DNA of 64,000 nt from a bacterium. Its GTDB lineage: Bacteria > UBA8248. The notes beneath the pieces are model-generated. The model did no database searches and was not told where the DNA came from. It was given only the letters and a program-made list of their open reading frames with translations. The position numbers were made by a program, and so were the translations under genes. The stretch is taken from NCBI GenBank assembly GCA_965203325.1, contig OZ241875.1, forward strand, positions 4,290,702 to 4,354,701, in the 5' to 3' direction. How positions within the stretch are numbered: position 1 is the stretch's first letter; each line of letters starts with the position of its first letter. Of the stretch, positions 1 through 22,916 are shown one piece after another.

Positions 1-1438
1 GTGCGAAATCGCGGTTGCGGTAGACGATGGGCCTGCCGTTCACGCCTTCGAGCGGGGGGCCGAGTTCCAGGTCTTTTTCGTTTCGGATGTGGCAACCCAG
101 GCAACCGACCTCTTCGAAGATGGATTTCCCTTGCTTGATCTGCGCGGCGTCATCGAGATTCGGGAACGCGGCCGGTTCCACCTTGCGCGGACCCTGCCGC
201 CAGACGTATGTGGCGATGTCCAGCGCTTCCTGGTCCGACAGGCTGAAATAGGGCATGCGGGTGCGCGGGTTGTAGTCTTTCGGCCTCTTGACCCAGGAGA
301 CGAGCCAGTCGGGCGCCACCTTCTCCTGGATTCTCGAGAGGTCCGGCCCCACCTTGCGCAGGCCTTCCGTGCCCGGAAGGGTGTGGCAGCCGTTACAGCC
401 CAACTCCCGGGTGAGGGAGATGCCGCGCGAGATTTGCGGCGCCTCGGGGATGTTGAATATCTCGGTGTGGCAGCTTCTGCACTTGGTTTGCGTTTCGCTG
501 CCGTGCAGAAGAGGGTCTTCCCAGAATTGCACGTGGCCGTGGGCCGTATTGAGGCTGGTGACGGCCGTTCCCTGACCGCCGTGGCAAAGCGTGCAACCGA
601 CCTTGTTGAATTCGTGCTTCGAGAGATAAAGACGCCTGTTGGGGTGCGTGCGGAAAGGTTGGGGCGCATCCTCGAAGCCCGCCCTGTTGATGCCCAGGTG
701 ACAGGTCTGGCACCGCTCCACCTTCATCACGGGTTCGTTGAAGTTGTTGCGCTCATATTCGCGCAGGACGAGCTGGCTGATCTCATAGGGACGGGCGGAG
801 ATGCCTTTCAGCCGCCGCTCCTGGGAGGAAATGTCGCCCGCCACTTTTCGCCGCGTCGCCTGGAGCGTTTTCAGCTCTTTTTCCTTGGCCTCAATCTTTG
901 CCTTTATCGCGTCTCTGTCGGCTTCGGCCTTCTCCGCGACGGGCGTTATCTCATCGAGGAGGGCCTTGGCCTCGTCGACTTCGGTTTGCTCGGCTTCTTT
1001 GTCATGTCCTTGCCGGATGGCTTCCTGAAGATAGAAGTAGGACTGATCGAAAAGCGCTTTTCTGAAGCCAAGCTCCTGCACTTTCTCGAAAGCGTCGAGT
1101 TCGCTCTTCGTGAGTTCTGCTTTCAGTTGCTTGAGTTCTTCGTCGCCCGCGAGTTTTTGTTCTTGCGCGGCGATTTTCTTGTCGAGTTCGGCGACCGCGG
1201 AGCCGGTGGTTTTCTTGAGTCTGTCGAGTTCTTTCTCTACCTGGGCTTTTTCATAGGCGTTGAACTGTTTCTGGTATTGTTTCCAGGGTCTGCGCGTGAA
1301 CGCCTCGTCCCAGACGGTCCAGAACGTCACCGCGACCATGAAGAGGCCCAGGATGAAAAACGGAATCGGACTGGTTTTTTCTTCCGGAGGTTTGAAGTCT
1401 CGGCCTTGCATCTTGAAAAAACGCTCCCCCACCGGCAT
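1..1438 (-). CDS. Membrane-anchored multiheme c-type cytochrome (3'-partial, continues beyond window start)
   Basis: Minus-strand frame opens after an in-frame TAG with ATG candidates at 1438 and 1411. N-terminal TM helix (PIPFFILGLFMVAVTFW), ~130-aa E/K/L-rich coiled-coil stalk, then at least 5 CxxCH heme motifs (CQTCH, CTLCH, CRSCH, CNGCH, CLGCH). The last two sit in class-I cytochrome c-like contexts (GPDLSRI...MPYFSLS...YVW; GPPLEGV). The frame runs off the window edge. Confidence 0.8.
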   Translation of the reverse strand, partial: MPVGERFFKMQGRDFKPPEEKTSPIPFFILGLFMVAVTFWTVWDEAFTRRPWKQYQKQFNAYEKAQVEKELDRLKKTTGSAVAELDKKIAAQEQKLAGDEELKQLKAELTKSELDAFEKVQELGFRKALFDQSYFYLQEAIRQGHDKEAEQTEVDEAKALLDEITPVAEKAEADRDAIKAKIEAKEKELKTLQATRRKVAGDISSQERRLKGISARPYEISQLVLREYERNNFNEPVMKVERCQTCHLGINRAGFEDAPQPFRTHPNRRLYLSKHEFNKVGCTLCHGGQGTAVTSLNTAHGHVQFWEDPLLHGSETQTKCRSCHTEIFNIPEAPQISRGISLTRELGCNGCHTLPGTEGLRKVGPDLSRIQEKVAPDWLVSWVKRPKDYNPRTRMPYFSLSDQEALDIATYVWRQGPRKVEPAAFPNLDDAAQIKQGKSIFEEVGCLGCHIRNEKDLELGPPLEGVNGRPIVYRNRDFA

Positions 1439-1479
1439 TTTGAGCGGAAATTCCGGGTTTCTTGGCTAAAATCCGGCTG

Positions 1480-1508
1480 ATTATAGGTACGGGCATGACG
1501 GGCGTCAA
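1480..1508 (-). promoter_or_regulatory. Sigma70-like promoter for the cytochrome gene (TTGACG-N17-TATAAT on minus strand)
   Basis: Minus-strand reading of 1508->1480 gives TTGACG (1508-1503), a 17-nt spacer, then TATAAT (1485-1480), about 40 nt upstream of ATG 1438. Direct sequence match to consensus. Confidence 0.5.
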
Positions 1509-1633: not shown

Positions 1634-4600
1634 TTATTCGTTTTGGCTTCTGATGATGCCGGCGAGTTGGCCGATGATGGCGATGGAGATGGTCGGGTGC
1701 TCGTGAATCAGTTCGAGAAGGGGCTCTTTCTCGATACCCAGCAATGAGGTGTCCCGGCTGGCTCGCGCGCCTGCGCTTCTGCCCTCATCGCCGAAAAGCG
1801 CGATTTCCCCGAACGAGGTCGGGGGACCGAGCGTGGCCAGAATCCTCGGCGCCCCGTTCGCCTGGTTGAGGATGATTTCTATTTCCCCGTCCACGATGAC
1901 GTAGAGATAATCACAAGGGTCTCCCTGTTCGAAGAGAACCGTTCCCTCCGGTATCTGGATTTCCCTGGAAATGTTGCTCAGTATTTTCAACTCGTCCGCG
2001 CTCAACGTCTCGAACATGTTGACGCCTTTCAAGAACAGGGCTTTTTCGATGGTCGAGAGCATGAATTTCTCCTGTCCGTGTAGAATTTCGCCGACCGCGC
2101 CGTCTCGGGGGCGGTCCCGGCGCGTCTGGATGCGCACCAGTCGGCTTTCGTCATTCTCCATGGTTCTCAAGAACGCCTCAAGTTCGTCTTCGTCTTTCCC
2201 GATGATTCTCGTTGCGACGACCGCCGCCTCGCGGACGTAGGGGTCGCCCTCGGAGGCCCGCGCCTTGAATTGCGCGCGCCATTCGGCGGTCGCCTCATCC
2301 GGTTCGCTTTCGAGGTGTTTGCCCGCCGCGTCGACGGCGATGGCCTGGAGCCACGCGTTTTCGGAATCCATATAAGTCGTCAGCACCTCGTCAATCGATC
2401 CTTCGGGTATCTCCCAAAGTTTCCTGCCCTCGGAGACCTTGTCGGCGGTCGACCTGCCGAGCAGCAAAGGTTCGAGAGCCAGAATCAGGACTCTCGTATT
2501 GCCGGCCGAAGAGAAGTTCGAGAGCGTTTCGATGGCGATGGCTCTCGACGAGGAGCCGCCCCGTGCGAGGGATTCCGACACGGTATCCACCGTCTTCTCG
2601 TCTCCAATCACCCCCAATAGTTCCAGCAAAACCAGTTGTCTTTCCGCGACGACGTCTTCAAGCGCTTTTCTCAGCATCGTGAAGGCGGGTGCGTTTTCCC
2701 GGCGTTCGATGACGTGGAGGTGATTGATGACGCCGTAGACTTCCCGCAGGTGCTCCACGGCGAACCCCGAGAGGGAGTCCACGATTTCCTGCGCGCTCAT
2801 TTCGCGGGAGCCGTTTTCGGCGCTTCTGGACAAAAGCGGAGCAAGAAACGAAAGTACCCCGGAACCTTCGAGCGAGAGGGTTCCTTTTCGCTTCATGTTC
2901 TTGAGCGATTCGACGGCCTCTCGCCTCACCAGAAAATCGACGTCCGAGAGAGCGGTCAGGGCGCGTTCGAAACTCTCCCGCGAGCCTTTGTTGCCCAGTT
3001 GCCGGACGCCTCTGCGCCTGATGGCCGCGCTCTCATCCGAGGTGGTCACCCGGATGACTTCTTCCATGCTCTCCTCATCGACTCCCTGGTTCATGGCCAG
3101 AACTTCTATCGCCTCCAAGGCGGCTTCGCGGACTTTCTCCTCGTCCTGATAGAGATAGGGAATCAATCGTCTGATGAAGCGCGGGTTCTGAAGCTCTCCC
3201 ATGCACCTGAGGGCGCAGACCCTGGCCGCCGCGTCTTCTTCGTTCAGCATCCGGTGCAGGGTTTGCAGGCCGTTGGCGAGCCAGAACAGATCGTCCGAGC
3301 GGACGAGCAGCTCGACGGCACGGGCCCGGACTTCGGGGGAGCCGCTTTCCAGATTCTCGTGGACCAGTTCCGCCGTCTCCTCCGTCAGTCCGATGCTTTC
3401 CGCCGCATCCATGGCGGCGCACTGGAGGAGCGGCTCCTCGCAGGTGAGGTATTCCTCCAGCAGGGGCCGCATTTTCTCGCCCTCATCGGCTCCGGGAGCC
3501 CTGGCGAGAATTTTCAGCAACTCGGCCGCGGCCCCTCCTTTTCGCCGGGGGATTTCTTCGAGGATGATCCCGAAAATTTCGCTTCTGCCGCTTTCCGCCA
3601 TCATCTGCGCCGTGAAGACGCAAAGATCATCGTCCCCCTCGCGGATGTTCTTCCTGAGTATCGCCATGCTCTCATCGTCAACCGGGCCGAACCCTTCCTG
3701 CGCGTAGCGGAACAGGCCCAAGTTTCTCTCCTCGAGCATCCGGCGCAGGGCGGCGCCGTATTCATGACGCACGAAGAAGCCGACGGCCAGATAGGCGAAG
3801 GCGATGAACAAGGAGATGAGCGCCAATTGGCCTGCGCTCAAGGGGAAGAGGGCGAGACCGGTGGGCTTGATGATGAGCAGGGCGACGCCGCTGACGATGC
3901 TGGCCACGGCGACCACCTGGCCCGCGACGAACGCGCCGACTCTCGCGCGGATCGAGGGGGAGACGGCGTTATAGAGCAGGGCGTTGATGGCGTTTCGAAT
4001 CGATTCCTGGAGGTTCTTGTTGTTGAAGCGCAAGAAGACGGCGGAATAGAAGCCGGGCGAAATCGCCATGCCGGCGAGGCCGATGATGGTCGTGAGCGGG
4101 TAGAGGAGGTTCGCCGTTCCCAGGCCGAGCCGCTTGATGATGCGCGGGGTGATGAACGTCTGAACGAGCAGGGAGAAGGCGCTCCCGATGGCGGTGAAAT
4201 ACCCTAAAAACGAGGCGAGTTGCGCGCGGTCGGGAAAGACTTCGCGGAATACGAGGCTGTATTGGAAATCCTGAAAACTCCTGAGAATCACCACGATGAA
4301 GCTGAACAGGGCGAACGCGCAGACGTATCTGTTCGTCCGCATGAGCGCGAGATTGCCGCCTTTTGAGGCCGTCTTGGTTGTTTTGCGCTTTTTGGGGCCC
4401 GCATCGTCGATCAGGTGGTCTCTCAGCCGCCGTTCGGTGTATTGCACCACACCGACGCTTACGACGATGGCGCCGATCCATACATAGAGCAGATTCGAGA
4501 CGCTCCCCAGGATGGGGATGAGCAGCGGAATGGCGAGGCCGCCGACAATGCCGCCGTAGCGTCCCCCGGTCAGGATGATCGGAACCAGCCGTTTGGATTG

Positions 4601-5041
4601 CAGGACGTCGAGATACTGCCCGTAAAGGGCGCGGAAATTGTTCGGCAGCATGTTCGTGAACATGACGAACAGCGTGTGGAGAAGCGGGAATGCGATCGGC
4701 ATCGCGTAGGCGCGGAAATCCGCGAAGATGAGCAGTTTGATGCCGAAAACGAGCACGATGAAAAAAACCAGGACGGTCTTGAACATCGCCGGAATCGAGA
4801 GTTTTTCGGTCAGCGAGGAGTAGAAGGTGCTGATGAAGATGATCATCAGGGCGTTGAATATGTACATATAGGGGAGAAAACCCGGGCCGACTTCCGAGAG
4901 GAACAGGGCTTCGGATACGGTGAGCCCGATGGAGAACTGAATCCCGATCAGGAAATAGAAGAAAAAGAACACCGAGAAGACGAGCAACTCTTCTTCCTGG
5001 ATGTTGAAGACTTTTTTGAGGAGTTTCTTCATGCCGGTCAC
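1634..5041 (-). CDS. 1135-aa fusion: 12-TM transporter domain (ATP:ADP antiporter/TLC-Npt-like or MFS-like) + HEAT (PBS-lyase-type) repeat region + C-terminal CAP-type cyclic-nucleotide-binding domain
   Basis: GTG start at 5041 (ATG alternative at 5032). About 480 aa with ~12 hydrophobic helices. A central ~450 aa region has repeated E..VR..A...L / DE.AA.R..A.R.LG HEAT-like units. C-terminus has the cNMP-binding signature (LSADELKILSNI...FGEIALF...RSAGARA). The specific transporter family is recalled from memory and needs an HMM check. Confidence 0.7.
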   Translation of the reverse strand: MTGMKKLLKKVFNIQEEELLVFSVFFFFYFLIGIQFSIGLTVSEALFLSEVGPGFLPYMYIFNALMIIFISTFYSSLTEKLSIPAMFKTVLVFFIVLVFGIKLLIFADFRAYAMPIAFPLLHTLFVMFTNMLPNNFRALYGQYLDVLQSKRLVPIILTGGRYGGIVGGLAIPLLIPILGSVSNLLYVWIGAIVVSVGVVQYTERRLRDHLIDDAGPKKRKTTKTASKGGNLALMRTNRYVCAFALFSFIVVILRSFQDFQYSLVFREVFPDRAQLASFLGYFTAIGSAFSLLVQTFITPRIIKRLGLGTANLLYPLTTIIGLAGMAISPGFYSAVFLRFNNKNLQESIRNAINALLYNAVSPSIRARVGAFVAGQVVAVASIVSGVALLIIKPTGLALFPLSAGQLALISLFIAFAYLAVGFFVRHEYGAALRRMLEERNLGLFRYAQEGFGPVDDESMAILRKNIREGDDDLCVFTAQMMAESGRSEIFGIILEEIPRRKGGAAAELLKILARAPGADEGEKMRPLLEEYLTCEEPLLQCAAMDAAESIGLTEETAELVHENLESGSPEVRARAVELLVRSDDLFWLANGLQTLHRMLNEEDAAARVCALRCMGELQNPRFIRRLIPYLYQDEEKVREAALEAIEVLAMNQGVDEESMEEVIRVTTSDESAAIRRRGVRQLGNKGSRESFERALTALSDVDFLVRREAVESLKNMKRKGTLSLEGSGVLSFLAPLLSRSAENGSREMSAQEIVDSLSGFAVEHLREVYGVINHLHVIERRENAPAFTMLRKALEDVVAERQLVLLELLGVIGDEKTVDTVSESLARGGSSSRAIAIETLSNFSSAGNTRVLILALEPLLLGRSTADKVSEGRKLWEIPEGSIDEVLTTYMDSENAWLQAIAVDAAGKHLESEPDEATAEWRAQFKARASEGDPYVREAAVVATRIIGKDEDELEAFLRTMENDESRLVRIQTRRDRPRDGAVGEILHGQEKFMLSTIEKALFLKGVNMFETLSADELKILSNISREIQIPEGTVLFEQGDPCDYLYVIVDGEIEIILNQANGAPRILATLGPPTSFGEIALFGDEGRSAGARASRDTSLLGIEKEPLLELIHEHPTISIAIIGQLAGIIRSQNE

Positions 5042-5128
5042 TTATCAAGCGGTGGAGAGGATACTTCGTGAGATTATCGCCTCCCGGAAGCTCCGGAGTG
5101 GAAGCGAACTTGCGCTGTTGATTCTAGC

Positions 5129-6775
5129 CTAGGCTTTTTGAGATTTCCATGAGTAGAACGACAAGGCGTCCTCCGTCCACTGCGCGCAGTTCCGGCTGAA
5201 TCTATCCCATCGGCTGTTGGCGCATTGGGCGCGAACGGGGTCGGCGTTGCCCTCGGCAATGAGGCCGTTGAGCGGCGAGAGGTCGAATTCGGCCCGAACG
5301 GGCACTCTGCCGCGCTCCTCGGGGCCGAGGAGAGACAAAAAGCGCGCGAACGCGTCGAATGCGCCTCGAATCTTCTCGCACAGGTGCTCCGCGCCTCCCG
5401 CGTATGCGACCAGGGGTGGAACCAAAGGGGCGTAGCGGTTCAGTTCCATGCCACCCTCCGTGCGGTTCGTGATGCTGTCCACGCCGACGACCCCGACCGA
5501 ATCCTCCGAGAATTCCACCGGAAAGAGTCTGGCGTAAATCGTTTCCACGACCGGCCCTTCGCGGCTGAGCCTCAGATGAACGCGGACGCTGAACAGGCCG
5601 AAATCGATCCAGTCGCATATCAGCGGAAGGTAGCGCGCGTCGAACACCTGCTCGTAGTTCTCGATGGCGCTCGCCAGGAGGCGAATCGAATCCTCACGCG
5701 TGCGGGACGCTTCGCGCAGTTCGGATTCGAGTCTGGGCGCGCAGTTTTTGAGCATCTGCCCCAAAACGTCCGGGGAAGCGCCGCCTCCCGCCCTTCGGGT
5801 CTTGACGTAGGCTTTCGCGGTCGCCGGGCTTTCCTGGAAGCGGTGAACGAGCCAGTCCATCGCCTGGAGGTGATCGTGGTTTTCCGCGTCGAGAGACAAG
5901 GGGAGGGGAATCGCGTGGTCCGCCGCGACGCCGAGTCTGCTCAAATCCGGAAATCCGAACCCGTTGGGGTAGACGTCCAGCCGAAAGCATCCGCGTCCCC
6001 CGCCGCCTTCCTGCGGTTTGACGAAGAAAGTCCCCGTCCCCCGTTTTTGAGACAGGGCGGAGGCCCTCTCCAGAATGGCGGCGGCGGTCTCCGCAGGTCT
6101 TCCTCCGTTCAGTTCCACCACTTCATAGGCGGCCGTCAGGCGACGCTCGGGACCGCCCGCTTCGGGGTTTTCCGTGTCCGTCCCGTTTCCGTTCAGGAGT
6201 TCGTACGTGGTTTTCTTGTTGGAGAGCGGCCCGCCGGGGGCGGTGAGAGACCCCGGCGCGACGACGATTCCGCGGGCTTCCAGGACCTTGGCGAGGGTGG
6301 CGTCGTAGAGGCTTCTCTGGGCGGTCTGGCTGATGACGAGCAACTCTTTCGGCGCTCTGGCGGCGCGGGCCAGCAGTTCCTCCCGCCGGTTCAGGACCCT
6401 GACGGGGATGGACAACCCGAGTTGTTTCAGGTGCGCCCTCATCACCCGCGCCGTTTCCATGGTGAGGGGGAGCCGGCTCGGGGAGCCGTCCAGCAAAAGG
6501 ATTTCTCCCGGACGCCGAATGGGCGGCGCGTCTTCCAGAATGCGCAAGTCTGCGAAACGGGGTTCGCGCGACGCCCAGAGGTTGAGGCTTTCGATCAGCG
6601 TTTCGTTCAGATCGCCGTCAGGCGAGTCGAACTCCCGGCTCACGCGGTACAGGTCCCAGACGCCGCCGCTCGCATCGGGCGTGAGATTGTAGAGAGCGGG
6701 TTCCCGCGCGATGCGGGGATGGTTTGATGGTTTGCGCGAGGTCAAGGTTTCGTTCTCGATGCCTAAAACACCCAC
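5129..6775 (-). CDS. Hypothetical protein, possible ATP-grasp-like carboxylate-amine ligase
   Basis: 548-aa ORF whose start overlaps the stop of the upstream gene by 13 nt. Contains FFVKPQEGGGGRGCF (Lys + Gly-rich loop reminiscent of the ATP-grasp phosphate loop) and a downstream AEFDL...N stretch. No strong family match from memory. Confidence 0.45.
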   Translation of the reverse strand: MGVLGIENETLTSRKPSNHPRIAREPALYNLTPDASGGVWDLYRVSREFDSPDGDLNETLIESLNLWASREPRFADLRILEDAPPIRRPGEILLLDGSPSRLPLTMETARVMRAHLKQLGLSIPVRVLNRREELLARAARAPKELLVISQTAQRSLYDATLAKVLEARGIVVAPGSLTAPGGPLSNKKTTYELLNGNGTDTENPEAGGPERRLTAAYEVVELNGGRPAETAAAILERASALSQKRGTGTFFVKPQEGGGGRGCFRLDVYPNGFGFPDLSRLGVAADHAIPLPLSLDAENHDHLQAMDWLVHRFQESPATAKAYVKTRRAGGGASPDVLGQMLKNCAPRLESELREASRTREDSIRLLASAIENYEQVFDARYLPLICDWIDFGLFSVRVHLRLSREGPVVETIYARLFPVEFSEDSVGVVGVDSITNRTEGGMELNRYAPLVPPLVAYAGGAEHLCEKIRGAFDAFARFLSLLGPEERGRVPVRAEFDLSPLNGLIAEGNADPVRAQCANSRWDRFSRNCAQWTEDALSFYSWKSQKA

Positions 6776-7932
6776 TTGCGCTGGCGCATGAAGTGTTTGA
6801 TCACCCAGTCCGCAATGGCGCCGCCCACGGCATTGTCGGTCGCAAGGGAAGAGGGGTTCGGGGCGATGCAGCTCAGGGCGCGTATCCCCGTCATACGATA
6901 CGCCTCCTCGCGCGCGTGCGCTTCGTTGGCGAGCCTTCCGGAAATGAGCATGTTTTCCTCCTCCACCCCCAGGTGGCTTCGGATCCAGTGGACGATGAGC
7001 GTTGATTCCAGCGTATCACATGCGCAGACGATCAACCCTCTGCGCGAGAGCCAGTCTTTGACCCAGGGGTCGCTCGCCACGTGAAGGCTGGCGTCCGAGG
7101 AGGGAGAATCCGCCAGTTCCGCGATGACGATTTCCGCCTTGGCGCATGCGTGGCGTAGCAGGTTTTGGGCGCATCGCCTGACCTTGTGCCTGGAGACGCC
7201 GCACGTGGAGGCAAGGCCCGCATCGACGAAATCCCAGCCGAGTCTCGCGGAATCGAAAAACCCGAGCGGTCTTCCGTAGTTCACTTGCATGAGGTCCCGC
7301 ATCCGGCCGGTTCCCGTGAGTTTCACGTATGAAACGTGAATGCCCGAGGAGTGCAGGGCGGAGGCGAGCGAAGACGCGCAGGTCGTTTTGCCCACGTCCA
7401 TATCGGAGCCGGTGACCAGGATGATGGGAGCGCAGGGAACTCCCTCTTCATCCACGGGGCAGCGGGTATCGGGAATGACGGGGAGATGAGAAAGCAGAGC
7501 GGGTTCGCCTCGATGCGCGACGCCCCCTTTCACCTCTATTCTCACGCACGGCGTTTCGGGGTTCGTGCGGATCCCGCAGACGCCGCCGACATTCAACAGG
7601 TCGAGCACGGTTCCGGGTGCTGCGGGAGAGTCCGGCTCACGGCCCGAAACGCTGCGATTCGCATATCGCCCGCCGATCACAACGACCACGTTCATCTTTT
7701 CGCGCAATTTTGCTTCGCTCGTCATCCAGGCATCTTGCGTCCCCTGGAGGACTTCGAGTGTTTCCAGGCGATCGACGGGAGCGTTCTTCGGCGCTGCGAC
7801 GACTTCACCCAGCGCGATTCCGTTCGAGGGAACGGCCCTGGGGTCGGGCGTGAAATCCGCATCGAACGCATACGGGATTTCAGGCGACAGGAACAATCCT
7901 CGGGCGGTGGATGCGAAAAAGTCCGGTTTCAA
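6763..7932 (-). CDS. DUF1611-like protein (N-terminal Rossmann-like domain + P-loop NTPase-like domain)
   Basis: 389 aa with TTG start. Begins with NVVVVIGGRYA (Rossmann-like strand), then ILVTGSDMDVGKTTCASSLASAL (Walker-A-like GKTT). Architecture resembles DUF1611/COG3367; family assignment is from memory. Confidence 0.55.
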   Translation of the reverse strand: MKPDFFASTARGLFLSPEIPYAFDADFTPDPRAVPSNGIALGEVVAAPKNAPVDRLETLEVLQGTQDAWMTSEAKLREKMNVVVVIGGRYANRSVSGREPDSPAAPGTVLDLLNVGGVCGIRTNPETPCVRIEVKGGVAHRGEPALLSHLPVIPDTRCPVDEEGVPCAPIILVTGSDMDVGKTTCASSLASALHSSGIHVSYVKLTGTGRMRDLMQVNYGRPLGFFDSARLGWDFVDAGLASTCGVSRHKVRRCAQNLLRHACAKAEIVIAELADSPSSDASLHVASDPWVKDWLSRRGLIVCACDTLESTLIVHWIRSHLGVEEENMLISGRLANEAHAREEAYRMTGIRALSCIAPNPSSLATDNAVGGAIADWVIKHFMRQRKWVF

Positions 7933-7945
7933 TTTTCACCATGTC

Positions 7946-9436
7946 CTAAGCGGGAGAAAGAGCGAGACGGCGCGTGAATGTATCTATCATTTCCCGGGCG
8001 GCGGGGGATATCTGCTCTTCTCCCTCTTCATAATAGATGGATGAGACGCCCTCGAGCTTACAGAATGCTCCCCTCGGCTCTACTATGGTGCCTTTCGCCG
8101 GGGGAGAGCAAGTGACGAGCACCTCATCCTGGTCTTGAACGTCGCTCAGGCGATAACCCCGCCGGATGAATTCGGGCCTCCCGTTTTGGACGGTGTAGAT
8201 TCCGGGTTCCAGCGAATAACCGATTCGCGCTCTCGAAGGGCTCGTGTTTCGAATCAAAAGCTGAAAACCGGATAAATCCGATCGGCCGAGTTCGGCGAGC
8301 GAATCCCGGTGTGCGTCGAGAGCGGCGCCCGGCTTCAGGAATTCGGCCAGATGCCAGTAGGTGGTGGTGGGTGCGTCGCCGTGTATTTCCTCGAGCTCGG
8401 TCATCAGTTGCGTGGTTCCCAGCACGCGCGGGTTGAGTTCGAGGGCATAGGGTTCGTCCCGATGGACGATGAAATCGACGCCGTATATCCCCCGGTAGCC
8501 CGCACGGGCTATCCACTCTCCGATTTTCAGGGTGAATTCCTCGATTTTTCGCCGGCTCCTTTCGGAAACCAGCCGATACGCCGCATAGTCGCTTCCGGCA
8601 TAGTCGAAGCGGTGCATGGAGCAGCCGGGAATTCCCGTGAACATCACCGAAGGGTGGGACATCCGGGGTTTCCCGTCATAAATCAACCCCGCCGTTCCCA
8701 GGGCGGGGCCGCTCAGAAACGCGCTCACGATCACCGGCGCATCGGGGCCCAGTTTTTCGGTGAGTTCATCCCGTTTGTTCGCGAGCGCCTCGGATGAGTC
8801 GATGAGGTGCGTCTGGTTGCCCGAGGAGCCGATTCGCTCCGAAATGATCATGACCGGCCCGAATTGATCAAGTTGTTTGGGTCCGAGTTCGCCCAGGGCC
8901 ACCACGTCCCCCGGGGGAACGGCGAACCCCGCTTCGACCGCTTGGCGCCGGAACGCTATCTTGTCATCGAATCTCGTCTTGATTTCCACCGGGTTCGCCA
9001 GGATGTGGAGCCTGCCGTCGGCTTCTTCTGCGAGTTTGCCGAGGAATTCCGTGGAGCGGTAGGGGATGACGTATCGGGGAGCGTCCCCTTGTGAGAGAAA
9101 TTCCCGGATTTGAGAGCCCAGGGCGCCTTCATAGGCTTCTACGAGTGATGAATGGGTCCATACGATTCGTCTGTTCCGCCCGCGCTCCACGGCGAAATAG
9201 CGCAGGCGCCTGTCCCATTCGGGCCCGTCGAGACCGTAGTCACAGGCGATGAGGAAATCGAGGGGGACGATGTTTTCCACCGTGATCGAATCGACCGCGC
9301 GCAGCCCCTGAAAGCCGAACGTCGAGCCGTCCGGAACGGCGGAGGTCAGCGCTTCTTTGAAACTGTCTTTTGCATGACGAGACAAGGAAAAGCATCCTTC
9401 ATGGAGAATCAATGATGAATGTCCAGACGGCGCCAA
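7946..9436 (-). CDS. ATP-grasp family ligase with ~200-aa N-terminal extension
   Basis: 496 aa. The C-terminal motif GIYGVDFIVHRDEPYALELNPRVLG is the classic ATP-grasp Mg/ATP-binding E-x-N motif. Lies 13 nt upstream of the DUF1611-like gene on the same strand. Confidence 0.7.
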   Translation of the reverse strand: MAPSGHSSLILHEGCFSLSRHAKDSFKEALTSAVPDGSTFGFQGLRAVDSITVENIVPLDFLIACDYGLDGPEWDRRLRYFAVERGRNRRIVWTHSSLVEAYEGALGSQIREFLSQGDAPRYVIPYRSTEFLGKLAEEADGRLHILANPVEIKTRFDDKIAFRRQAVEAGFAVPPGDVVALGELGPKQLDQFGPVMIISERIGSSGNQTHLIDSSEALANKRDELTEKLGPDAPVIVSAFLSGPALGTAGLIYDGKPRMSHPSVMFTGIPGCSMHRFDYAGSDYAAYRLVSERSRRKIEEFTLKIGEWIARAGYRGIYGVDFIVHRDEPYALELNPRVLGTTQLMTELEEIHGDAPTTTYWHLAEFLKPGAALDAHRDSLAELGRSDLSGFQLLIRNTSPSRARIGYSLEPGIYTVQNGRPEFIRRGYRLSDVQDQDEVLVTCSPPAKGTIVEPRGAFCKLEGVSSIYYEEGEEQISPAAREMIDTFTRRLALSPA

Positions 9437-9663
9437 AATGAAAACAGGCGATTCTAATTCGATAGCCTCGCGGATATCAACATAATAATACGGCGTTTCG
9501 GAAAACGATCGGTGTCACTCCCGGGAGCTTCTGCAACGCGCAGCGCGCTATGCTAGGATACGGGGCGTTTCAGCCGAAAAATGACACACTCATGCGTGAG
9601 AGTGGATGTATGTCCGTAGAGAGAAACATGCCCGAATCGGCGTTGGATACCGATGAATACCCG

Positions 9664-10542
9664 ATGATGTCGGAATCGGAGCTCAGGTGGGAGAAATTCC
9701 GCCGGAGTTTGGTGCGCGCCAAACCGGCGATGCTCGGAGGCGTTTTTCTCATCCTGCTGGTGGTCGTTTCTCTTTCCGCCCCCCTCATCGCGCCGCAAGA
9801 CCCGAGCCTGGTGGACGTCAACCTGCGCCTGAAGCCTCCCGTGTGGGAGGAGGGCGGGAGCGTGAGCTACCCCCTGGGAACCGACGCGCTGGGCCGGGAC
9901 ATTCTGAGCCGGCTCATGTACGGGGGCCGCGTCTCCATTCTGGTGGGCTTGAGTTCGGTGGTGATTTCGGGGGTCATCGGCATCGTCCTGGGCCTTGTCT
10001 CGGGTTTTTTCGGCGGGAAAATCGACGATCTCATCAGCGGGTTTTCCGAAATCCAACTGGCGTTTCCCTTCATTCTGCTGGCCCTCACGATCATGGCGGT
10101 CGTCGGGCCGGGCCTGCTCAACATCATCGTGGTGCTGGGGATCAGCCGGTGGGTGGCGTACGGCCGCGTGGTGAGAGGACAGGTCATCTCGATAAGGGAG
10201 CGCGAATTCGTGGAGGCCACGCGCGCCCTGGGTTACCCTTTGTACCGCATATTGTTCATGCAGATTCTGCCCAACACCTTATCTCCGCTGATCGTCATCG
10301 CCACCTTCGCCGTGGCGGGGAACATCATTTCCGAATCCTCGCTGAGTTTCCTCGGGCTCGGCGTACCGCCCTCGGTCGTCACCTGGGGGGGCATGTTGTC
10401 CGAGGGACGCGAATATCTGAGAGGCGCGTGGTGGATGGCGACTTTTCCGGGTCTCGCCATCATGGCGACGGTTCTGAGCATCAACCTTATCGGCGACTGG
10501 CTGCGGGACTACATGGACCCCCGCCTCGGCGATGATATGTAG
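9664..10542 (+). CDS. ABC peptide/opine transporter permease, DppC/OppC type
   Basis: ISRWVAYGRVVRGQVISIREREFVEATRALGYPLYRILFMQILPNTLSPL matches the DppC/OppC EAA-loop region. In-frame alternative starts at 9610 and 9550; 9664 gives the typical ~290-aa length. Confidence 0.8.
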   Translation: MMSESELRWEKFRRSLVRAKPAMLGGVFLILLVVVSLSAPLIAPQDPSLVDVNLRLKPPVWEEGGSVSYPLGTDALGRDILSRLMYGGRVSILVGLSSVVISGVIGIVLGLVSGFFGGKIDDLISGFSEIQLAFPFILLALTIMAVVGPGLLNIIVVLGISRWVAYGRVVRGQVISIREREFVEATRALGYPLYRILFMQILPNTLSPLIVIATFAVAGNIISESSLSFLGLGVPPSVVTWGGMLSEGREYLRGAWWMATFPGLAIMATVLSINLIGDWLRDYMDPRLGDDM

Positions 10543-10563
10543 GTTTCTGAAGGGAATTCGTGC

Positions 10564-12111
10564 ATGAAAAGGGCCTTGTTGTGCGGATGTTGTCTGCTGC
10601 TCGTGGCGCTCGCCGCCTGCGGCCGCGAAGCGAAAGAGGGTCCCTTCACGGTTCTCCTCTCGGTGGAGGCCAATACGCTCGACCCCCATTTCGCGACGGC
10701 CACCATCGAGTGGAGCATATTGATGAACATGTTCGACCCGCTCATCGAACGGCGCGGCGATATGACGCTGGGCCCCGCCCTGGCCGAACGCTGGGAGGTG
10801 GACGAGACGAAAAAAATCTGGACGTTTCATCTTCGCAAAGGGGTGAAGTTTCATAACGGCGAACCTTTCGATGCGGAATCCGTGCGCTACACGTTCGAGC
10901 GCATGCGCGATAAAAAGCTCAAGCCCCGCATCACGGTTTACCGGAGGATTTTCCTGGACAGGGTGGAAAAAGTGGACTCCCACACCGTGAAGATTCATAC
11001 GAAGCGCCCGGTCGCCACCCTGCCGGTGTGGATGGTGAACGCGTTCATGCTGCCGCCCAAGTATTATTCGTCGACCCCGCCCAAGGAATTGTTGAAGAAA
11101 CCCGTGGGCTCGGGACCCTACAAGCTGGTGAAATGGGTCAAGGACGACCGCATCGAGATGGCGGCCAACGAGGGCTGGTGGCGGGGTGAGCCTGCGATAA
11201 AAAAAGCGGTCTGGCGGCCGGTGGCCGAGGCTTCGGCCCGCATAGGGGAGCTTGAGACGGGCGGGGCCGACGTCATCATGAATATCTCGCCCGATCAGTC
11301 GAAAACCATTCTGTCGAGAGAAGAGGGTCTCCAGCTTAAAGGTGCTCGGGGGGGACGCAGGATTTATCTGGGAATTCGCACGGATCACGGGGTGCTCGGC
11401 GATGCGCGCGTCCGCCGGGCGCTGAACCACGCGATTGATTTCGAGGCCGTCGTCAGGAACGTTTTTCTGGGCCATGGCTCGCGGATGCGCAGCATCGTCA
11501 ATCCCCCGAACGCCGCCCCGAACATCAAGGCGTACGCCTACGATCCCCCAAAGGCGAAAGCGCTCCTCGCCGAGGCCGGTCTCAAGGATACGAATGGGGA
11601 CGGTGTCCTGGAAGCGAATGGAAAGCCATTTGAGGTGAAACTTGAAGTACCCGCTTCCAGATATTTGAAAGGAAAGGAGATGGCGGAATTTATAGCAGCT
11701 TATTTCCGCGACGTGGGCGTCCACGTGGAAGTGATTCCCCTGGAGTGGTCCGTTTTCCTCGCCAGAAGGAGAAAAAAGACGCTGGCGCCCTTGTATTTTC
11801 ACGGGTTCAGTTCCGCCTTCAACGAAGAACTCGACCTGGGTGTATTGAGGCCGAACCTTTTCGCGAACCTCACCGCCTGGAGGAACCGGAAGTTTATTCA
11901 AAATTACAAGAAGTTGGGCCAGACGTTCGACCCCGCCGAGCGCAAGCGGATCAGCTACCGGATGCAGCGCATCGTTCACGAGGAAAGTCCGTGGGTGTTT
12001 CTCTGGAACCAGTATGATTTTTTCGGCCTGAGCGCGAGGACGCAGTGGACGCCGAGGCCGGATGAGAGAATCTACCTGCCCACGATTCGCTTGAAAGAGG
12101 CGAAAGAATAG
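10564..12111 (+). CDS. ABC transporter substrate-binding lipoprotein, family 5 (peptide/nickel/opine type)
   Basis: 515 aa with a lipoprotein signal (LLLVALAACG). Length and motifs are typical of DppA/OppA-family binding proteins. Confidence 0.85.
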   Translation: MKRALLCGCCLLLVALAACGREAKEGPFTVLLSVEANTLDPHFATATIEWSILMNMFDPLIERRGDMTLGPALAERWEVDETKKIWTFHLRKGVKFHNGEPFDAESVRYTFERMRDKKLKPRITVYRRIFLDRVEKVDSHTVKIHTKRPVATLPVWMVNAFMLPPKYYSSTPPKELLKKPVGSGPYKLVKWVKDDRIEMAANEGWWRGEPAIKKAVWRPVAEASARIGELETGGADVIMNISPDQSKTILSREEGLQLKGARGGRRIYLGIRTDHGVLGDARVRRALNHAIDFEAVVRNVFLGHGSRMRSIVNPPNAAPNIKAYAYDPPKAKALLAEAGLKDTNGDGVLEANGKPFEVKLEVPASRYLKGKEMAEFIAAYFRDVGVHVEVIPLEWSVFLARRRKKTLAPLYFHGFSSAFNEELDLGVLRPNLFANLTAWRNRKFIQNYKKLGQTFDPAERKRISYRMQRIVHEESPWVFLWNQYDFFGLSARTQWTPRPDERIYLPTIRLKEAKE

Positions 12112-12114
12112 ACG

Positions 12115-13032
12115 ATGAGCGCCTATCTTTTCAGACGATTTCTTCGGGCCGTCGTGGTCGTGGTCGGCGTGAGCTTCATCTCGTTCGCCGTCTTGTTCCT
12201 ATCGGGCGACCCGACCGACACCATGGTGGGCGAGGACTGGACGGTCGAGGAGGTACAGAAACTCAAAAAAGACTTGGGTCTGGACAAGCCCTGGTTCGTT
12301 CAATACACGCTCTACGTGGGCAGGGCGGTGCAGGGTGATTTCGGAGAAAGCCTGCGCTACCGCCAGCCCGCGTTCGAACTCATCATGGAGCGTCTGCCGG
12401 CGACGCTGGAACTCGCTCTCGTGGCGCTGGTTCTCTCGATTATCCTGGCGTTTCCGGTAGGAGTCATCAGCGCGACGAAACGCGGCTCTCCGTATGATCA
12501 CGGGGGGATGCTATTCGCGCTCCTGGGGCAGTCCATGCCCGTTTTCTGGCTCGGCTTGATGCTCATCCTCATCTTCGGGGTGGGTCTGCGGTGGCTGCCC
12601 GTCAGCGGAAGAAGCGGCTGGGAGCATCTGGTGCTGCCCGCCATCGCGCTTTCCACCTACTCGATTGCGAGAAACGCGCGGGTGGTCCGAAGCTCCATGC
12701 TCGAGGTTCTGCGGCATGAATACGTGAAGACCGCCCGGGCGAAGGGACTCTCCGAGTGGGTCGTCGTCAACCTGCACGTGCTCAGGAATTCCATGATTCC
12801 GGTGATCACCATCATCGGCCTCGAATTCGGGCATCTGCTGGGGGGTGCTGTGATCGTCGAGACGATTTTCTCCTGGCCGGGGGTGGGAAGGCTCCTGATC
12901 CAGGCCGTCTACGCCAAGGATTTCCCCCTGGTGCAGGCCTCGGTGACCATCACCGCTCTGATTTTCGTGTCATTGAACCTCATCGTTGACCTGATGTATT
13001 CCGTCCTCGACCCAAGGGTGAGACTCCATTGA
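12115..13032 (+). CDS. ABC peptide transporter permease, DppB/OppB type
   Basis: 305 aa with 6 TM helices. The N-terminus (MSAYLFRRFLRAVVVVVGVSFISF) and conserved loop are typical of DppB/OppB. Lies 3 nt after the binding-protein gene. Confidence 0.85.
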   Translation: MSAYLFRRFLRAVVVVVGVSFISFAVLFLSGDPTDTMVGEDWTVEEVQKLKKDLGLDKPWFVQYTLYVGRAVQGDFGESLRYRQPAFELIMERLPATLELALVALVLSIILAFPVGVISATKRGSPYDHGGMLFALLGQSMPVFWLGLMLILIFGVGLRWLPVSGRSGWEHLVLPAIALSTYSIARNARVVRSSMLEVLRHEYVKTARAKGLSEWVVVNLHVLRNSMIPVITIIGLEFGHLLGGAVIVETIFSWPGVGRLLIQAVYAKDFPLVQASVTITALIFVSLNLIVDLMYSVLDPRVRLH

Positions 13033-13967
13033 GCCGGACCGCGTATTTCTGGACACCCGAATCTCTCATGCACGACAACGGCCGGCATGTGGAGAACGTC
13101 GAGCGCGCCAAACGCCTGGCGCCCGAGAGAATACTCCCCCAAGTCCCGTCGCTCCGACACATGGAGATTACACCGCACGACGCTAAGGAGTGGGTTCTGA
13201 GGGTGCATGAGGAATCGCACCACCGCTTCGTGCGCGAAGCGTGTGACGGCGGCAGGTGTATTCTCGATGGCGGAGATACGCTGGCGGGTCCGGGAAGCTA
13301 TGAGGCCGCCCTCGCCGCTGTCGATGCGGCCCTGAGCGCGGCGGATGCCGTCGTGGGTGGGGAGGCCGATAACGCCTTTTGCGCCGCGAGGCCTCCGGGA
13401 CACCACGCCTTGCCCCATCAGTCGATGGGTTTTTGCCTGTTCGCTACCGCTTCCATCCTGGTTCGGTATCTGCAGGAAAAACACGGCCTCCGGAGAATCG
13501 CCGTGGTGGATTGGGACGTGCATCACGGAAACGGCACGCAGGATACCTTCTGGCGAGATCCGGATGTTTTTTTCGTCTCCTTGCATCAGCATCCCCACTA
13601 TCCGGGCACGGGGCTCTCGGGCGAGACGGGGGAGGGAGCGGGCGAGGGTGCGACGCTCAACATTCCCGTCGCGGCGAGAACGCCCGAGGAGGAATACTTG
13701 GCGAAATTTCAGGAAAGCGTTATCCTCGCCATCGAGGCGCACGCGCCCGAAGCGATCATCGTATCGGCGGGTTTCGACGCGCACCGCGACGACCCGCTCG
13801 GAGGGCTGATGATCACCGAAGCCGGGTTCGCCCGCCTGACCGGATGGGTGAAGACGCTTGCCGAAAGCCTCTGCGGGGGGCGGCTTATCTGTCTTCTCGA
13901 AGGCGGATACAACCTCGACGCATTGGAGCGCTCCGTCGTCGCGCACTTGCGAGAACTTTCGGGGTAA
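13029..13967 (+). CDS. Histone-deacetylase-superfamily amidohydrolase (acetylpolyamine aminohydrolase / HDAH / AcuC-like)
   Basis: TTG start overlapping the dppB stop (TTGA). Contains the AYFWTPESLMHDNG and DWDVHHGNGTQD motifs characteristic of bacterial HDAC-like amidohydrolases. Confidence 0.85.
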   Translation: MSRTAYFWTPESLMHDNGRHVENVERAKRLAPERILPQVPSLRHMEITPHDAKEWVLRVHEESHHRFVREACDGGRCILDGGDTLAGPGSYEAALAAVDAALSAADAVVGGEADNAFCAARPPGHHALPHQSMGFCLFATASILVRYLQEKHGLRRIAVVDWDVHHGNGTQDTFWRDPDVFFVSLHQHPHYPGTGLSGETGEGAGEGATLNIPVAARTPEEEYLAKFQESVILAIEAHAPEAIIVSAGFDAHRDDPLGGLMITEAGFARLTGWVKTLAESLCGGRLICLLEGGYNLDALERSVVAHLRELSG

Positions 13968-14004
13968 CGGATTTGCACACCGGGCTTACAGACAGCCCAA
14001 AAAT

Positions 14005-14113: not shown

Positions 14114-14746
14114 ATGGCAGTGGCAACGGCGACGCCCAAAGGCCTCAAGGCGTCCGCTACGAAACAGAAAATCATCGAAGCGGCCGCGCGGCTCGTCTAT
14201 CACAGAGGGTTTCACGCCACGTCGCTCGATATGGTGGCGCAGGCCGCCGGGGTGAACCGGGGGAGTCTGTACTATTTTTTCCGCTCCAAGAAGAACCTGG
14301 GACTCGCCGTCATCGATCACTACGAATCGCTTCTTCATCAAAACTATCTTTCCCCCTCATTTGACACAAGGGCGAAGGGAAGCGAGAAAATAAGGCGGCT
14401 GGCGGAATCCTACGCCCGCATGCCGATTCAGGATTCCCCGTGCTGCGGATGCCCTGTCGGGAACCTTTCGCTCGAACTCAGCGCCATAGATGAGGAGTTG
14501 CGCGTTCGGCTGAAAGGGGTGTGGGACGGGGTTTTCGAGAGGATCGCCCACGTATTGGCGCAGTCCAAAGAGGAAGGCGACCTTCCGGGGGAGCTTGAGC
14601 CGCTCGCCCATGCGCGTTCTTTTTTCTCCCAGATTCAGGGCGCGCATATCATCGCGCGGTGTTCGCAGGATGAGGCGTCTTTGCGCGGAGACTGCGAGCG
14701 CGCTTTCATGAGCCTGCCCTGGACGCGGAAAGGGGAGTCGGAATGA
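14114..14746 (+). CDS. TetR/AcrR-family transcriptional regulator
   Basis: N-terminal HTH (KQKIIEAAARLVYHRGFHATSLDMVAQAAGVNRGSLYYFF) is the canonical TetR signature. RBS GGGGGAGAGGG precedes ATG 14114. Stop overlaps the next gene start (ATGA). Confidence 0.8.
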   Translation: MAVATATPKGLKASATKQKIIEAAARLVYHRGFHATSLDMVAQAAGVNRGSLYYFFRSKKNLGLAVIDHYESLLHQNYLSPSFDTRAKGSEKIRRLAESYARMPIQDSPCCGCPVGNLSLELSAIDEELRVRLKGVWDGVFERIAHVLAQSKEEGDLPGELEPLAHARSFFSQIQGAHIIARCSQDEASLRGDCERAFMSLPWTRKGESE

Positions 14747-15891
14747 ACGGGGGAGGTCGTGAATTCAGGCGCGGTGGTCCCGTCTTTTCCAGCGGATGGG
14801 GATGGCTCGTCTGGTGTGTTTTCTTGCTGGGCGTCGTCCTCGCATGGCTGTTCGCAAGGGGCTATTTTGACAACCTCCACGATCCGGACGCCGTGCCCCG
14901 CGTCGTCACCCCGCGCGGGGACCTCGCCGCCGAGGAGAAATCCAACATCGAGCTTTTCCGCCTCTCCTCCCCGTCGGTCGTCTACATTACGCGGCTGGCG
15001 ATGAGGCGCGACAGGTTCAGCCTCAATTTGTTCGAGATTCCCCAAGGCACGGGTTCGGGCTTCGTCTGGAACGACCAGGGCCACGTCATCACGAATTTTC
15101 ACGTCATTCAGGGGGCGAGCGCCCTGCGCGTCACCCTGACGGATAATTCCGAGTGGGATGCGCGCGTGGTGGGCAGGGCGCCGGATCAGGATTTGGCGGT
15201 TCTCTTCATCAACGCGCCGAGGGATCGGTTGAAGCCTATCGCCATCGGGCAGTCCGCCAATTTACAAGTGGGCCAGCGGGTGTTCGCCATCGGCAACCCC
15301 TTCGGGCTGGACCAGACGCTCACGACGGGGATCATCAGCGCCCTGGGGAGGGAGATCAACGCCGTGTCGGGCCGCAAGATCAGCGGCGTCATCCAGACCG
15401 ACGCCGCGATCAATCCGGGCAATTCCGGAGGGCCTCTTTTGGACAGCGCAGGGCGCCTCATAGGCGTGAACACCGCCATTTTCAGCCCCTCGGGCTCCAA
15501 CGCAGGCATCGGCTTCGCGGTTCCCGTGGATACGGTGAACAGGGTCGTTCCCCAGTTGCTCCGCCATGGGCGCGTCATCCGGCCGGGTCTCGGCATCCAC
15601 GTGGCGGACAGGGGTACGGCGGAGCGCTTCGGAATACGGGGCGTTCTGATCATCCGTGTGCAGAAGGGCAGCGCGGCGGAAGGCGCTGGGTTGCGCGGCA
15701 CCGGGAGGAACCGGGAAGGCCGCCTCGTGCTCGGCGACGTGATTGTCGGCGTGGGAGAGCGCTCCATCACTTCGCTCAATGACTTGTTGGACGCCCTCGA
15801 TGCCCACAAAGTGGGCGACGTCGTGGAAGTGCGCCTGATGCGCGAGGGTAGCGAGATGAACGTAAGCGTAAAACTTCAGGCCCTGGGCTAG
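14743..15891 (+). CDS. HtrA/DegP-family periplasmic serine protease (S1C) with PDZ domain
   Basis: N-terminal TM/signal anchor, catalytic motifs GSGFVWNDQGHVITNFHV (His), D, and GNSGGPL (Ser), plus a C-terminal PDZ-like region. Confidence 0.85.
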   Translation: MNGGGREFRRGGPVFSSGWGWLVWCVFLLGVVLAWLFARGYFDNLHDPDAVPRVVTPRGDLAAEEKSNIELFRLSSPSVVYITRLAMRRDRFSLNLFEIPQGTGSGFVWNDQGHVITNFHVIQGASALRVTLTDNSEWDARVVGRAPDQDLAVLFINAPRDRLKPIAIGQSANLQVGQRVFAIGNPFGLDQTLTTGIISALGREINAVSGRKISGVIQTDAAINPGNSGGPLLDSAGRLIGVNTAIFSPSGSNAGIGFAVPVDTVNRVVPQLLRHGRVIRPGLGIHVADRGTAERFGIRGVLIIRVQKGSAAEGAGLRGTGRNREGRLVLGDVIVGVGERSITSLNDLLDALDAHKVGDVVEVRLMREGSEMNVSVKLQALG

Positions 15892-15900
15892 GAGTGTGGC

Positions 15901-18312: not shown

Positions 18313-18368
18313 ATTCGGGGTGCAGGCTTAAGCCCTCAGTGACTCGATTTTTCTTGGAGAAACATGAA

Positions 18369-18575
18369 ATGGCCAAAATGGAGATAATCGTAGGTGGGAT
18401 GAGTTGCGGGATGTGCCAATCGGCAGTCCAGGAGGCGTTAAGTGGTGTGGAAGGTGTGGCCGAAGCCGCCGTCGATCTGGAAGGGGGCAGGGCGACTGTC
18501 GTTTTCGATGAGGGGAAGACAAACCTCGACGCAATGCGCGCCGCCGTTGAAGACGCCGGATTTGATGCAGAATAA
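18369..18575 (+). CDS. copZ: Copper chaperone, HMA domain
   Basis: MAKMEIIVGGMSCGMCQSAV... ferredoxin-like HMA fold with MxCxxC. RBS GGAGA lies 10 nt upstream of ATG 18369; the track ORF starts earlier at GTG 18339. Confidence 0.8.
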   Translation: MAKMEIIVGGMSCGMCQSAVQEALSGVEGVAEAAVDLEGGRATVVFDEGKTNLDAMRAAVEDAGFDAE

Positions 18576-18646
18576 GACGCTAATTAACAGTTAGTTATGT
18601 GCTGTATATCAAGTAGATTCTCGATTCATCTGCTTCACTCTCGGCC

Positions 18647-19282: not shown

Positions 19283-19313
19283 AATGGCTTGAAGCGCGCA
19301 AGAATCACGTCAT

Positions 19314-20081: not shown

Positions 20082-20110
20082 GAAACACTCTCCTTAACGA
20101 TAATAAACCT

Positions 20111-22871: not shown

Positions 22872-22916
22872 TTTTGAAAACGCCCGGGGAAATGGTGAGA
22901 CGCTGAGGTGTAGGCG

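Follow-up and report, generated by a model that had tools for sequence, protein, structure and literature searches.

A gene in a UBA8248 bacterium encodes an NTT-HEAT-cNBD fusion protein whose carrier domain lacks most of the charged residues needed for ATP/ADP exchange

The stretch of DNA analyzed here (the window) comprises 64,000 nucleotides of contig OZ241875.1 (positions 4,290,702 to 4,354,701; assembly GCA_965203325.1) from a bacterium of the lineage UBA8248. Its minus strand carries a gene for a protein that joins, in one polypeptide, a predicted membrane carrier domain of the nucleotide transporter (NTT) fold, a long arm of HEAT repeats, and a C-terminal cyclic-nucleotide-binding domain (cNBD). 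With moderate confidence, we read this protein as an inner-membrane secondary carrier that is regulated by a cyclic nucleoside monophosphate (cNMP), and for which a nonclassical solute or transport mode is more likely than the antiport of ATP4− and ADP3−.

The three domains and their order in a single chain identify the protein as one of the NTT-HEAT-cNBD fusions of Major, Embley, and Williams (2017, Genome Biol Evol 9:480; PMC5381601). The passages of that paper on these fusions describe NTT domains fused C-terminally to HEAT repeats, with part of the clade adding a cNBD, and present the clade as monophyletic, broadly distributed in bacteria, and transferred to oomycetes. Its function is given there as unknown, and it is proposed that the binding of cyclic AMP (cAMP) adjusts NTT-mediated ATP uptake, with the HEAT arm relaying the conformational change. 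The Chlamydia trachomatis fusion, according to the same passages, is without a cNBD and was never assayed. The three-part design and the idea of allosteric cNMP control are thus not new, having been published in 2017; the idea is reasonable, and we infer it for the window protein. In the literature searched, no functional study of the NTT-HEAT-cNBD family was found, and later papers merely cite Major et al. (2017). This agrees with an earlier reading of the same DNA made from the letters alone (the sequence-only reading), which had called such fusions functionally uncharacterized.

The sequence-only reading had described a single polypeptide of 1,135 amino acids (aa). An uninterrupted open reading frame (ORF) of 1,135 codons is indeed present at 1634..5041, but it lies on the minus strand, where the translation is free of stops; the plus-strand translation of the same interval has stops throughout. 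The GTG at 5041 that opens this ORF is three codons upstream of an ATG at 5030-5032 (GTG ACC GGC ATG AAG AAA...). Since close homologues are all 1,132 to 1,133 aa long and begin at the equivalent methionine (N termini MAKLLKK or MKKLLKK), the sequence comparison makes this ATG the most likely true start. The coding sequence would then span 1634..5032 on the minus strand, with its stop codon at 1634-1636 and a product of 1,132 aa, so that the single polypeptide stands and its strand and start are corrected. Residue numbers below follow the 1,132-aa form unless the 1,135-aa form is stated.

The ORF is not a product of chance, because 99 homologues of the protein were found and the ratio of nonsynonymous to synonymous substitution rates (dN/dS; Nei-Gojobori method, against 21 orthologues, with ranges taken from close pairs) is 0.06 to 0.28 across the folded domains. 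Long antisense ORFs over the gene, such as that at 2636..4207 on the plus strand (523 aa), were set aside as by-products of a G+C content of about 60% in the gene region. Named relatives come from Nitrospinae/Nitrospinota and “Tectomicrobia” metagenome-assembled genomes (MAGs), and one NCBI protein (P0001), located on a 4.39-Mb contig, is 100% identical; the organism belongs to an uncultured Nitrospinota lineage. Proteins with PF03219, PF13646, and PF00027 align with 97 to 100% of the length of the query at 22 to 25% identity, and many proteins with this architecture are homologous to it from end to end. The window protein shares with the family of Major et al. (2017) its domains, their order, and a bacterial and widespread distribution. 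Nitrospinota are not among the taxa named in the passages of that paper on the fusions.

The carrier domain occupies residues 1 to 435 (3728..5032, minus strand). The sequence-only reading had proposed about 12 hydrophobic helices of a TLC/Npt- or MFS-like carrier. In the hydropathy analysis, about 12 hydrophobic segments form two sets of six (6+6), and an AlphaFold2 model built with a 38-sequence alignment contains 12 long helices between residues 13 and 434. The N terminus is rich in lysine, and the central cytoplasmic loop, at about residues 203 to 234, is rich in lysine and arginine, with 11 such residues between positions 200 and 238. The positive-inside rule, applied to 12 helices, would place both protein ends in the cytoplasm, together with the entire C-terminal extension.

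The family of this domain is not apparent from single-sequence searches. A Pfam scan of the first 460 residues gave no match of any kind, TLC (PF03219) and MFS (PF07690) included, even at an E value of ≤10, and an NCBIfam scan of the membrane domain gave no match. A profile (A2) in which 16 relatives are represented by their N-terminal domains, on the other hand, matches NTT1 of Chlamydia pneumoniae (CpNTT1; 9j3n, E = 5.8e-30) and NTT1 of Arabidopsis (AtNTT1; 9j3j, E = 1e-22) over nearly their full length. When the whole model was compared with the PDB using Foldseek, the three best matches were 9j3l, 9j3n, and 9j3m (AtNTT1/CpNTT1), with target template modeling scores (TM-scores) of 0.71 to 0.76 over 482 to 488 columns. 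Moreover, among 38 full-length relatives scanned with Pfam at an E value of ≤0.01, TLC was found in 18 and MFS_1 in 17, and all 38 carry HEAT_2 and cNMP_binding; a relative at 39% identity bears the NCBI name “Npt1/Npt2 family nucleotide transporter.” Because of the profile matches to solved NTTs, the best Foldseek matches, and the TLC and MFS_1 domains of the relatives, we assign the predicted membrane domain to a diverged NTT/TLC branch of the MFS superfamily, which bears out the carrier fold named in the sequence-only reading. This divergence sets the Nitrospinota clade apart from the family as treated in the passages of Major et al. (2017), its membrane domain being too far removed for Pfam TLC and without the acidic residue equivalent to E245 of AtNTT1.

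What such a domain carries was approached through the charged residues of characterized NTTs. According to the parts of PMC4256464 and PMC4776705 that treat them (citing Trentmann et al., 2000), ATP/ADP exchange by AtNTT1 requires K155, E245, E385, and K527, residues that show strong conservation among characterized NTTs, with K527 thought to be important for nucleoside-triphosphate transport. These four mutagenesis-defined residues were used for the comparison; their positions were located in the 9j3j chain by sequence context (chain numbering plus 84), and both solved NTTs were aligned with 38 members of the fusion family. In the window protein, K155, E245, E385, and K527 correspond to Y57, V123, D255, and a deletion, respectively, so that one of the four is kept; an HMMER alignment is concordant. 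The position of K155 holds Tyr, Phe, Leu, or Ile in all 38 fusion-family members, and the GKSG loop that contains K527 is likewise missing in 38 of 38. Most of the distant members keep the acid at E245, whereas the Nitrospinota clade has Val, Thr, or Met there.

Other features are common to the window protein, CpNTT1, and AtNTT1: K147-R148 in an AKR motif before transmembrane helix 5 (TM5), R301-x-G303 between TM8 and TM9, and the motif LLYN.VP. By analogy with motifs of the MFS, these elements of the cytoplasmic face seem to serve gating or structure and not to contact the substrate. Overall, the window protein and the canonical NTTs (CpNTT1, 9j3n; AtNTT1, 9j3j, 9j3l, and 9j3m; PF03219) have the same 12-helix fold, with profile-level homology, the AKR and R/K-x-G motifs, and an equivalent of E385 (D255) in common. 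They differ in that the identity is 14 to 16%, several extracytoplasmic loops are shorter in the window protein, and the latter bears about 700 additional residues at its C terminus.

Since three of the four essential charged residues are missing, the alignment makes classical ATP4−/ADP3− antiport appear unlikely and the annotation of the protein as an ATP/ADP translocase unsafe. It also weakens the nucleotide substrate implied by the sequence-only reading. The comparison provides a concrete and testable warning against annotating the family as ATP/ADP translocases. One rival reading is a classical ATP/ADP or nucleoside-triphosphate transporter in which cAMP matches the rate of uptake to the cell's energy state, as put forward in the relevant passages of Major et al. 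(2017). The fold and the profile homology to ATP/ADP translocators speak for it, as do the AKR and R301-x-G303 motifs, the fact that cAMP is made from ATP, and the prior publication of the idea (PMC5381601, in those passages). Against it stand the family-wide replacement of K155 and deletion of the K527 loop, the valine found at E245 in the Nitrospinota clade, the reported importance of K527 for nucleoside triphosphates (PMC4256464, in the part noted above), and a host that resembles a chemolithoautotroph, free-living or associated with sponges, whose genome measures about 4.3 Mb and which has no obvious external source of ATP. We regard this rival as unlikely, although it is the strongest of those considered.

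Between the carrier and the sensor, the AlphaFold2 model (mean predicted local distance difference test [pLDDT], 80.4; predicted TM-score [pTM], 0.55) shows a long helical arm. HEAT-repeat block A (residues 436 to 716; 2885..3727, minus strand) consists of about 17 helices of the PBS-lyase/alphaRep type, recognized by Pfam HEAT_2, by matches to alphaRep in the PDB, and by a 17-helix solenoid at residues 438 to 715 of the model. A linker follows at residues 717 to 746 (2795..2884, minus strand), where the pLDDT falls below 50 at positions 720 to 743 and the identity among orthologues is reduced. Helical-repeat block B (residues 747 to 972; 2117..2794, minus strand) was delimited from the model, in which 12 helices span residues 747 to 971, together with invariant columns and dN/dS; it opens with two long helices, continues with about 10 that are HEAT-like, and includes E835, which is invariant in the family. 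Residues 973 to 993 (2054..2116, minus strand) form a flexible tether to the sensor, with a pLDDT below 50 at positions 975 to 989. The HEAT_2 match is above the cutoff and covers several stretches (E = 4.8e-24), NCBIfam gave only subthreshold HEAT matches of the NblB/CpcE type, and Foldseek matched the modeled solenoid to PP2A-A and alphaRep in the PDB. The repeats described in the sequence-only reading are therefore present, but the arm is not of about 450 aa: it extends over about 535 aa (residues 436 to 972) and is split into two blocks by some 30 residues of disordered linker. In repeat type and solenoid shape it resembles the scaffold subunit A of PP2A and HEAT proteins of the PBS-lyase type (alphaRep, NblB, and CpcE); these are soluble scaffolds or lyase subunits, whereas the solenoid of the window protein is tethered between a carrier and a sensor.

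The dN/dS values follow this layout. They are 0.06 to 0.14 in the membrane domain, which is the most conserved part of the protein (85 to 99% identity), 0.07 to 0.18 in block A, 0.12 to 0.28 in block B, and 0.07 to 0.19 in the cNBD. For the tether they range from about 0.3 to 2, near neutrality, which indicates that it is essentially unconstrained. Carrier, HEAT arm, and sensor are all maintained by purifying selection, and the flexible linkers match the low-confidence stretches of the model. These values also bear on a second rival, in which the membrane domain no longer transports and the protein, anchored in the membrane and responsive to cNMP, acts as a scaffold or “transceptor” that recruits partner proteins through its HEAT arm. 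Such a role would fit the loss of three of the four catalytic charged residues, the tendency of HEAT solenoids to bind proteins (compare the PP2A-A match), and the signaling modules (cyclase, AAA_16, and TPR) that some relatives add. It is harder to reconcile with the strong conservation of the membrane domain in close pairs and with the retention of gating-type motifs across the family. A mere anchor would also have no need of a complete 12-helix carrier fold. We judge a pure scaffold to be less likely still than a cAMP-tuned ATP/ADP carrier.

The C-terminal domain (residues 994 to 1132; 1637..2053, minus strand) is of the CAP/CRP type. Pfam cNMP_binding matches residues 1029 to 1115 of the 1,135-aa form with an E value of 3.7e-21 and 75.3 bits, against a cutoff of 27.5. 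In the PDB, sequence matches to cGMP- and cAMP-dependent kinase domains (PKG and PKA-R) and to the CRP family reach E values down to about 1e-18, and Foldseek matched the modeled beta-roll and flanking helices (residues 994 to 1131) to CRP, GlxR, and PKG with a root mean square deviation of about 2 to 3 Å. NCBIfam matches to CRP and FtrB were subthreshold only. The phosphate-binding cassette, FGEIALFGDEGRSAGARA, which the sequence-only reading had quoted as the cNMP signature, is present and intact at residues 1074 to 1091 (1760..1813, minus strand). In a BLASTP comparison with Escherichia coli CRP (31% identity, E = 2e-12), G1075-E1076 corresponds to G71-E72 and R1085-S1086-A1087 to R82-S83-A84; in CRP, these residues contact the ribose and the phosphate of cAMP. 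None of the 38 relatives, which are only 19 to 25% identical overall, departs from G1075, E1076, or R1085, and at least 90% of them keep A1087. Between them, the Pfam scan, the profile search, and the Foldseek matches of the AlphaFold model thus recovered the CAP-type cNMP-binding fold and the transporter fold that the sequence-only reading had placed at the two ends of the protein.

The wider family connects this sensor with cyclic nucleotide synthesis. In P0108 (2,129 aa) and P0113 (2,154 aa), the cNBD is directly followed by a class III adenylate/guanylate cyclase (PF00211), a STAND-type AAA_16 domain, and MalT-type TPRs. Because of these fusions, a Rosetta-stone type of argument supports the view that the family sensor works with a cyclic nucleotide made by a cyclase and that the cNMP link is real in the family. 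They also speak against a third rival, that the cNMP-binding fold senses another ligand or none, like some CRP/FNR sensors (heme, 2-oxoglutarate, or no ligand). Such a sensor would be compatible with the many ligands that the CRP/FNR fold serves and with the subthreshold nature of the CRP and FtrB matches; the ribose-binding Glu and the phosphate-binding Arg-Ser-Ala are, however, invariant or nearly so in 38 divergent relatives. We therefore consider another ligand, or none, quite improbable.

A role in phage defense was also considered, as a Pycsar-type effector that combines a cNBD with a membrane-disrupting part and is activated by cyclic CMP or cyclic UMP. PADLOC gave weak cNBD matches to PycTIR and TIR effectors (E = 7e-8 to 1.5e-5), but these are confined to the generic sensor domain. 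Neither a cyclase match in Pfam nor any PADLOC match was obtained for the three upstream neighbors, the locus belongs to the core chromosome and is syntenic across all full-length Nitrospinota loci, and the protein has a complete carrier fold, not a few pore-forming helices. With no adjacent cyclase found and a syntenic locus, the context effectively refutes this reading, which we rejected and to which we give almost no credence. In order of likelihood, the rivals thus run from the cAMP-tuned ATP/ADP carrier through the scaffold or transceptor and the sensor of another ligand to the Pycsar-like effector.

For the cNMP-regulated carrier that we favor, a working mechanism can be outlined. A cytoplasmic cyclic nucleotide would bind the cassette, with Glu1076 contacting the ribose and Arg1085 and Ser1086 the phosphate; the ligand would most likely be cAMP, favored as the common product of bacterial class III cyclases. 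Binding would move the terminal C-helix and the hinge, and thereby change how sensor and arm dock, either on the carrier's cytoplasmic face or on a partner protein held by the arm. This altered docking would speed up or block the alternating-access cycle; the HEAT arm would provide the lever or the surface for docking and perhaps also a platform on which a partner protein could sit. The protein ends directly after the C-helix, with no output domain beyond it; therefore, any signal must return to the arm or the carrier. What we infer in this scheme is the membrane topology, the allosteric coupling, whether regulation is positive or negative, and which ligand binds.

Several points weigh against the scheme and the reading behind it. 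In the literature searched, neither transport nor binding has been assayed for any of these fusions. The pTM of the model is only 0.55, so that any contact in it between sensor, arm, and carrier is tentative. Loss of the charged residues could also mean that the domain transports nothing, and the type of cyclic nucleotide is not readable from sequence. In addition, some microsporidian NTTs substituted at three of the four positions reportedly have compensating residues 3 to 4 positions away, according to the section of PMC4256464 that deals with them, which makes the argument from residue loss nonconclusive.

Proteins of comparable design are found elsewhere. The sperm Na+/H+ exchanger SLC9C1 (8pd8 and 8otx), which is among the fold matches, is likewise a secondary transporter with a regulatory cytoplasmic C-terminal cNBD. 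It differs in having an NhaA-type fold, a voltage-sensor domain, and no HEAT arm, and its match is through the cNBD only (TM-score, ∼0.1). The bacterial channels MloK1 and SthK resemble the window protein in being gated by a C-terminal cNBD of the CRP type; they are tetrameric ion channels with a short C-linker, whereas the window protein would be a monomeric carrier with a 535-residue solenoid.

The membrane-domain profile was also searched against 1.84 billion cluster representatives, giving 17,979 matches at an E value of ≤1e-3, 13,224 at ≤1e-10, and 7,252 at ≤1e-30. Fusion-sized proteins (at least 890 aa) account for 118 of the best 150 matches, the best ones being mostly 900 to 1,250 aa long. 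HEAT_2 was found in all 14 of the top matches sampled and cNMP_binding in 13, the exception being P0191; P0221 and P0060 carry tandem cNBDs. The NTT carriers are best known as the “energy parasitism” transporters of Chlamydia, Rickettsia, microsporidia, and plastids, and the fused NTT-HEAT-cNBD branch, which comprises thousands of sequence clusters, far exceeds the characterized NTTs in size and occurs in free-living bacteria. Its cargo and cNMP control, once known, would define a new regulatory mode for bacterial carriers of the MFS type, and the cyclase-fused relatives offer a natural system in which to test the cNMP link. The window gene itself adds little to this, being one more orthologue. 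The five-module architecture of P0108 and P0113 was not noticed among the six architectures in the consulted passages of Major et al. (2017).

The genomic context was examined by a profile scan with the clade alignment (A3), using one genome per GTDB species, which gave 30 loci. One is from Verrucomicrobia (24% identity), the others that name a phylum are of the Nitrospinota type, and many are labeled only “MAG: bacterium.” All full-length Nitrospinota loci have an identical gene order: divergent Opp-type ABC genes, an ATP-grasp gene, a P-loop-like gene (∼390 aa), a gene of ∼548 aa, the NTT-HEAT-cNBD gene, and a multiheme cytochrome c gene (∼970 aa). In the window, the three genes upstream, all on the minus strand, encode an ATP-grasp_3 protein of 496 aa (7946-9436), a 389-aa protein with a weak P-loop/dethiobiotin-synthase-like match at its N terminus (6763-7932), and, immediately upstream, a 548-aa protein with no family match and an ATP-grasp-like motif, FFVKPQEGGGGRG (5129-6775). 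Their ORFs overlap or abut (5129-9436), and the trio precedes the fusion gene in every full-length Nitrospinota locus examined; it is possibly a pathway of small-peptide or amide ligases. The homologue at 39% identity still has the 548-aa gene upstream and the cytochrome gene downstream. The distant homologues, from Chloroflexi and other phyla, have unrelated neighbors.

An operon with the ATP-grasp cluster was not adopted as functional evidence, given the synteny of the whole block, the lack of the association in distant homologues, and a conserved promoter-like box of the gene's own. Because the syntenic block includes the divergent Opp genes and the cytochrome, the gene order is best read as inherited rather than as proof of a functional unit. 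A more far-reaching reading is that the NTT-like domain of Nitrospinota, which is without three of the four exchange residues and escapes the TLC model, has left nucleotide transport and moves another solute under cAMP control, possibly one connected to the ever-present neighboring genes for two ATP-grasp-like ligases and a P-loop protein, next to the oligopeptide-type importer. If this were true, the fold would serve as a cyclic-nucleotide-gated carrier for a nonnucleotide substrate; we consider it improbable in this specific form.

The promoter-like element, TGGAAA-N17-TAGAAT (5121..5149, minus strand), was found by a consensus scan and overlaps the stop codon of the upstream gene. When the spacers of 17 orthologous loci were aligned, the TAGAAT-like −10 box and its spacing recurred even where orthologues are as low as about 57% identical. 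In the window, some 96 nucleotides separate the gene from its upstream neighbor; in orthologues this spacer measures about 90 to 105 nucleotides, and the leader sequence is poorly conserved. The conserved box weakly suggests a promoter of the gene's own with a long 5′ leader, the TGGAAA −35-like part lying in the last codons of the upstream gene and thus being coding sequence.

Downstream, the 5′ part of the multiheme cytochrome c gene lies at 1-1465 on the minus strand (488 codons with five CxxCH motifs) and is cut by the edge of the window; this gene is downstream in all Nitrospinota loci. A strong promoter-like site, TTGACG-17-TATAAT, is located by it at 1480-1508, and the plus-strand ORF at 89..1480 (463 aa, no Pfam match) is probably spurious antisense. 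On the other side, the divergent plus-strand genes at 9550-13032 encode an oligopeptide/dipeptide ABC importer (an OppC-like permease, a family 5 solute-binding protein, and a second permease), syntenic throughout Nitrospinota. ORFs of 350 to 550 aa at 12909-13985, 22914-24233, 24470-26113, and 27132-28514 have no Pfam match, and Rfam and tRNA scans of the whole window gave no matches. The region at 14674-20998 holds ordinary housekeeping genes for an HtrA-like trypsin/PDZ protease, a heavy-metal P-type ATPase with an HMA domain, a flavin reductase, a short-chain dehydrogenase, and an alpha/beta hydrolase. Several of the closest orthologues come from MAG bins (SB0662_bin, RHO1_bin, and COS4_bin) named like those of sponge microbiome studies; going by these names, the organism of the window may belong to a sponge-associated Nitrospinota lineage.

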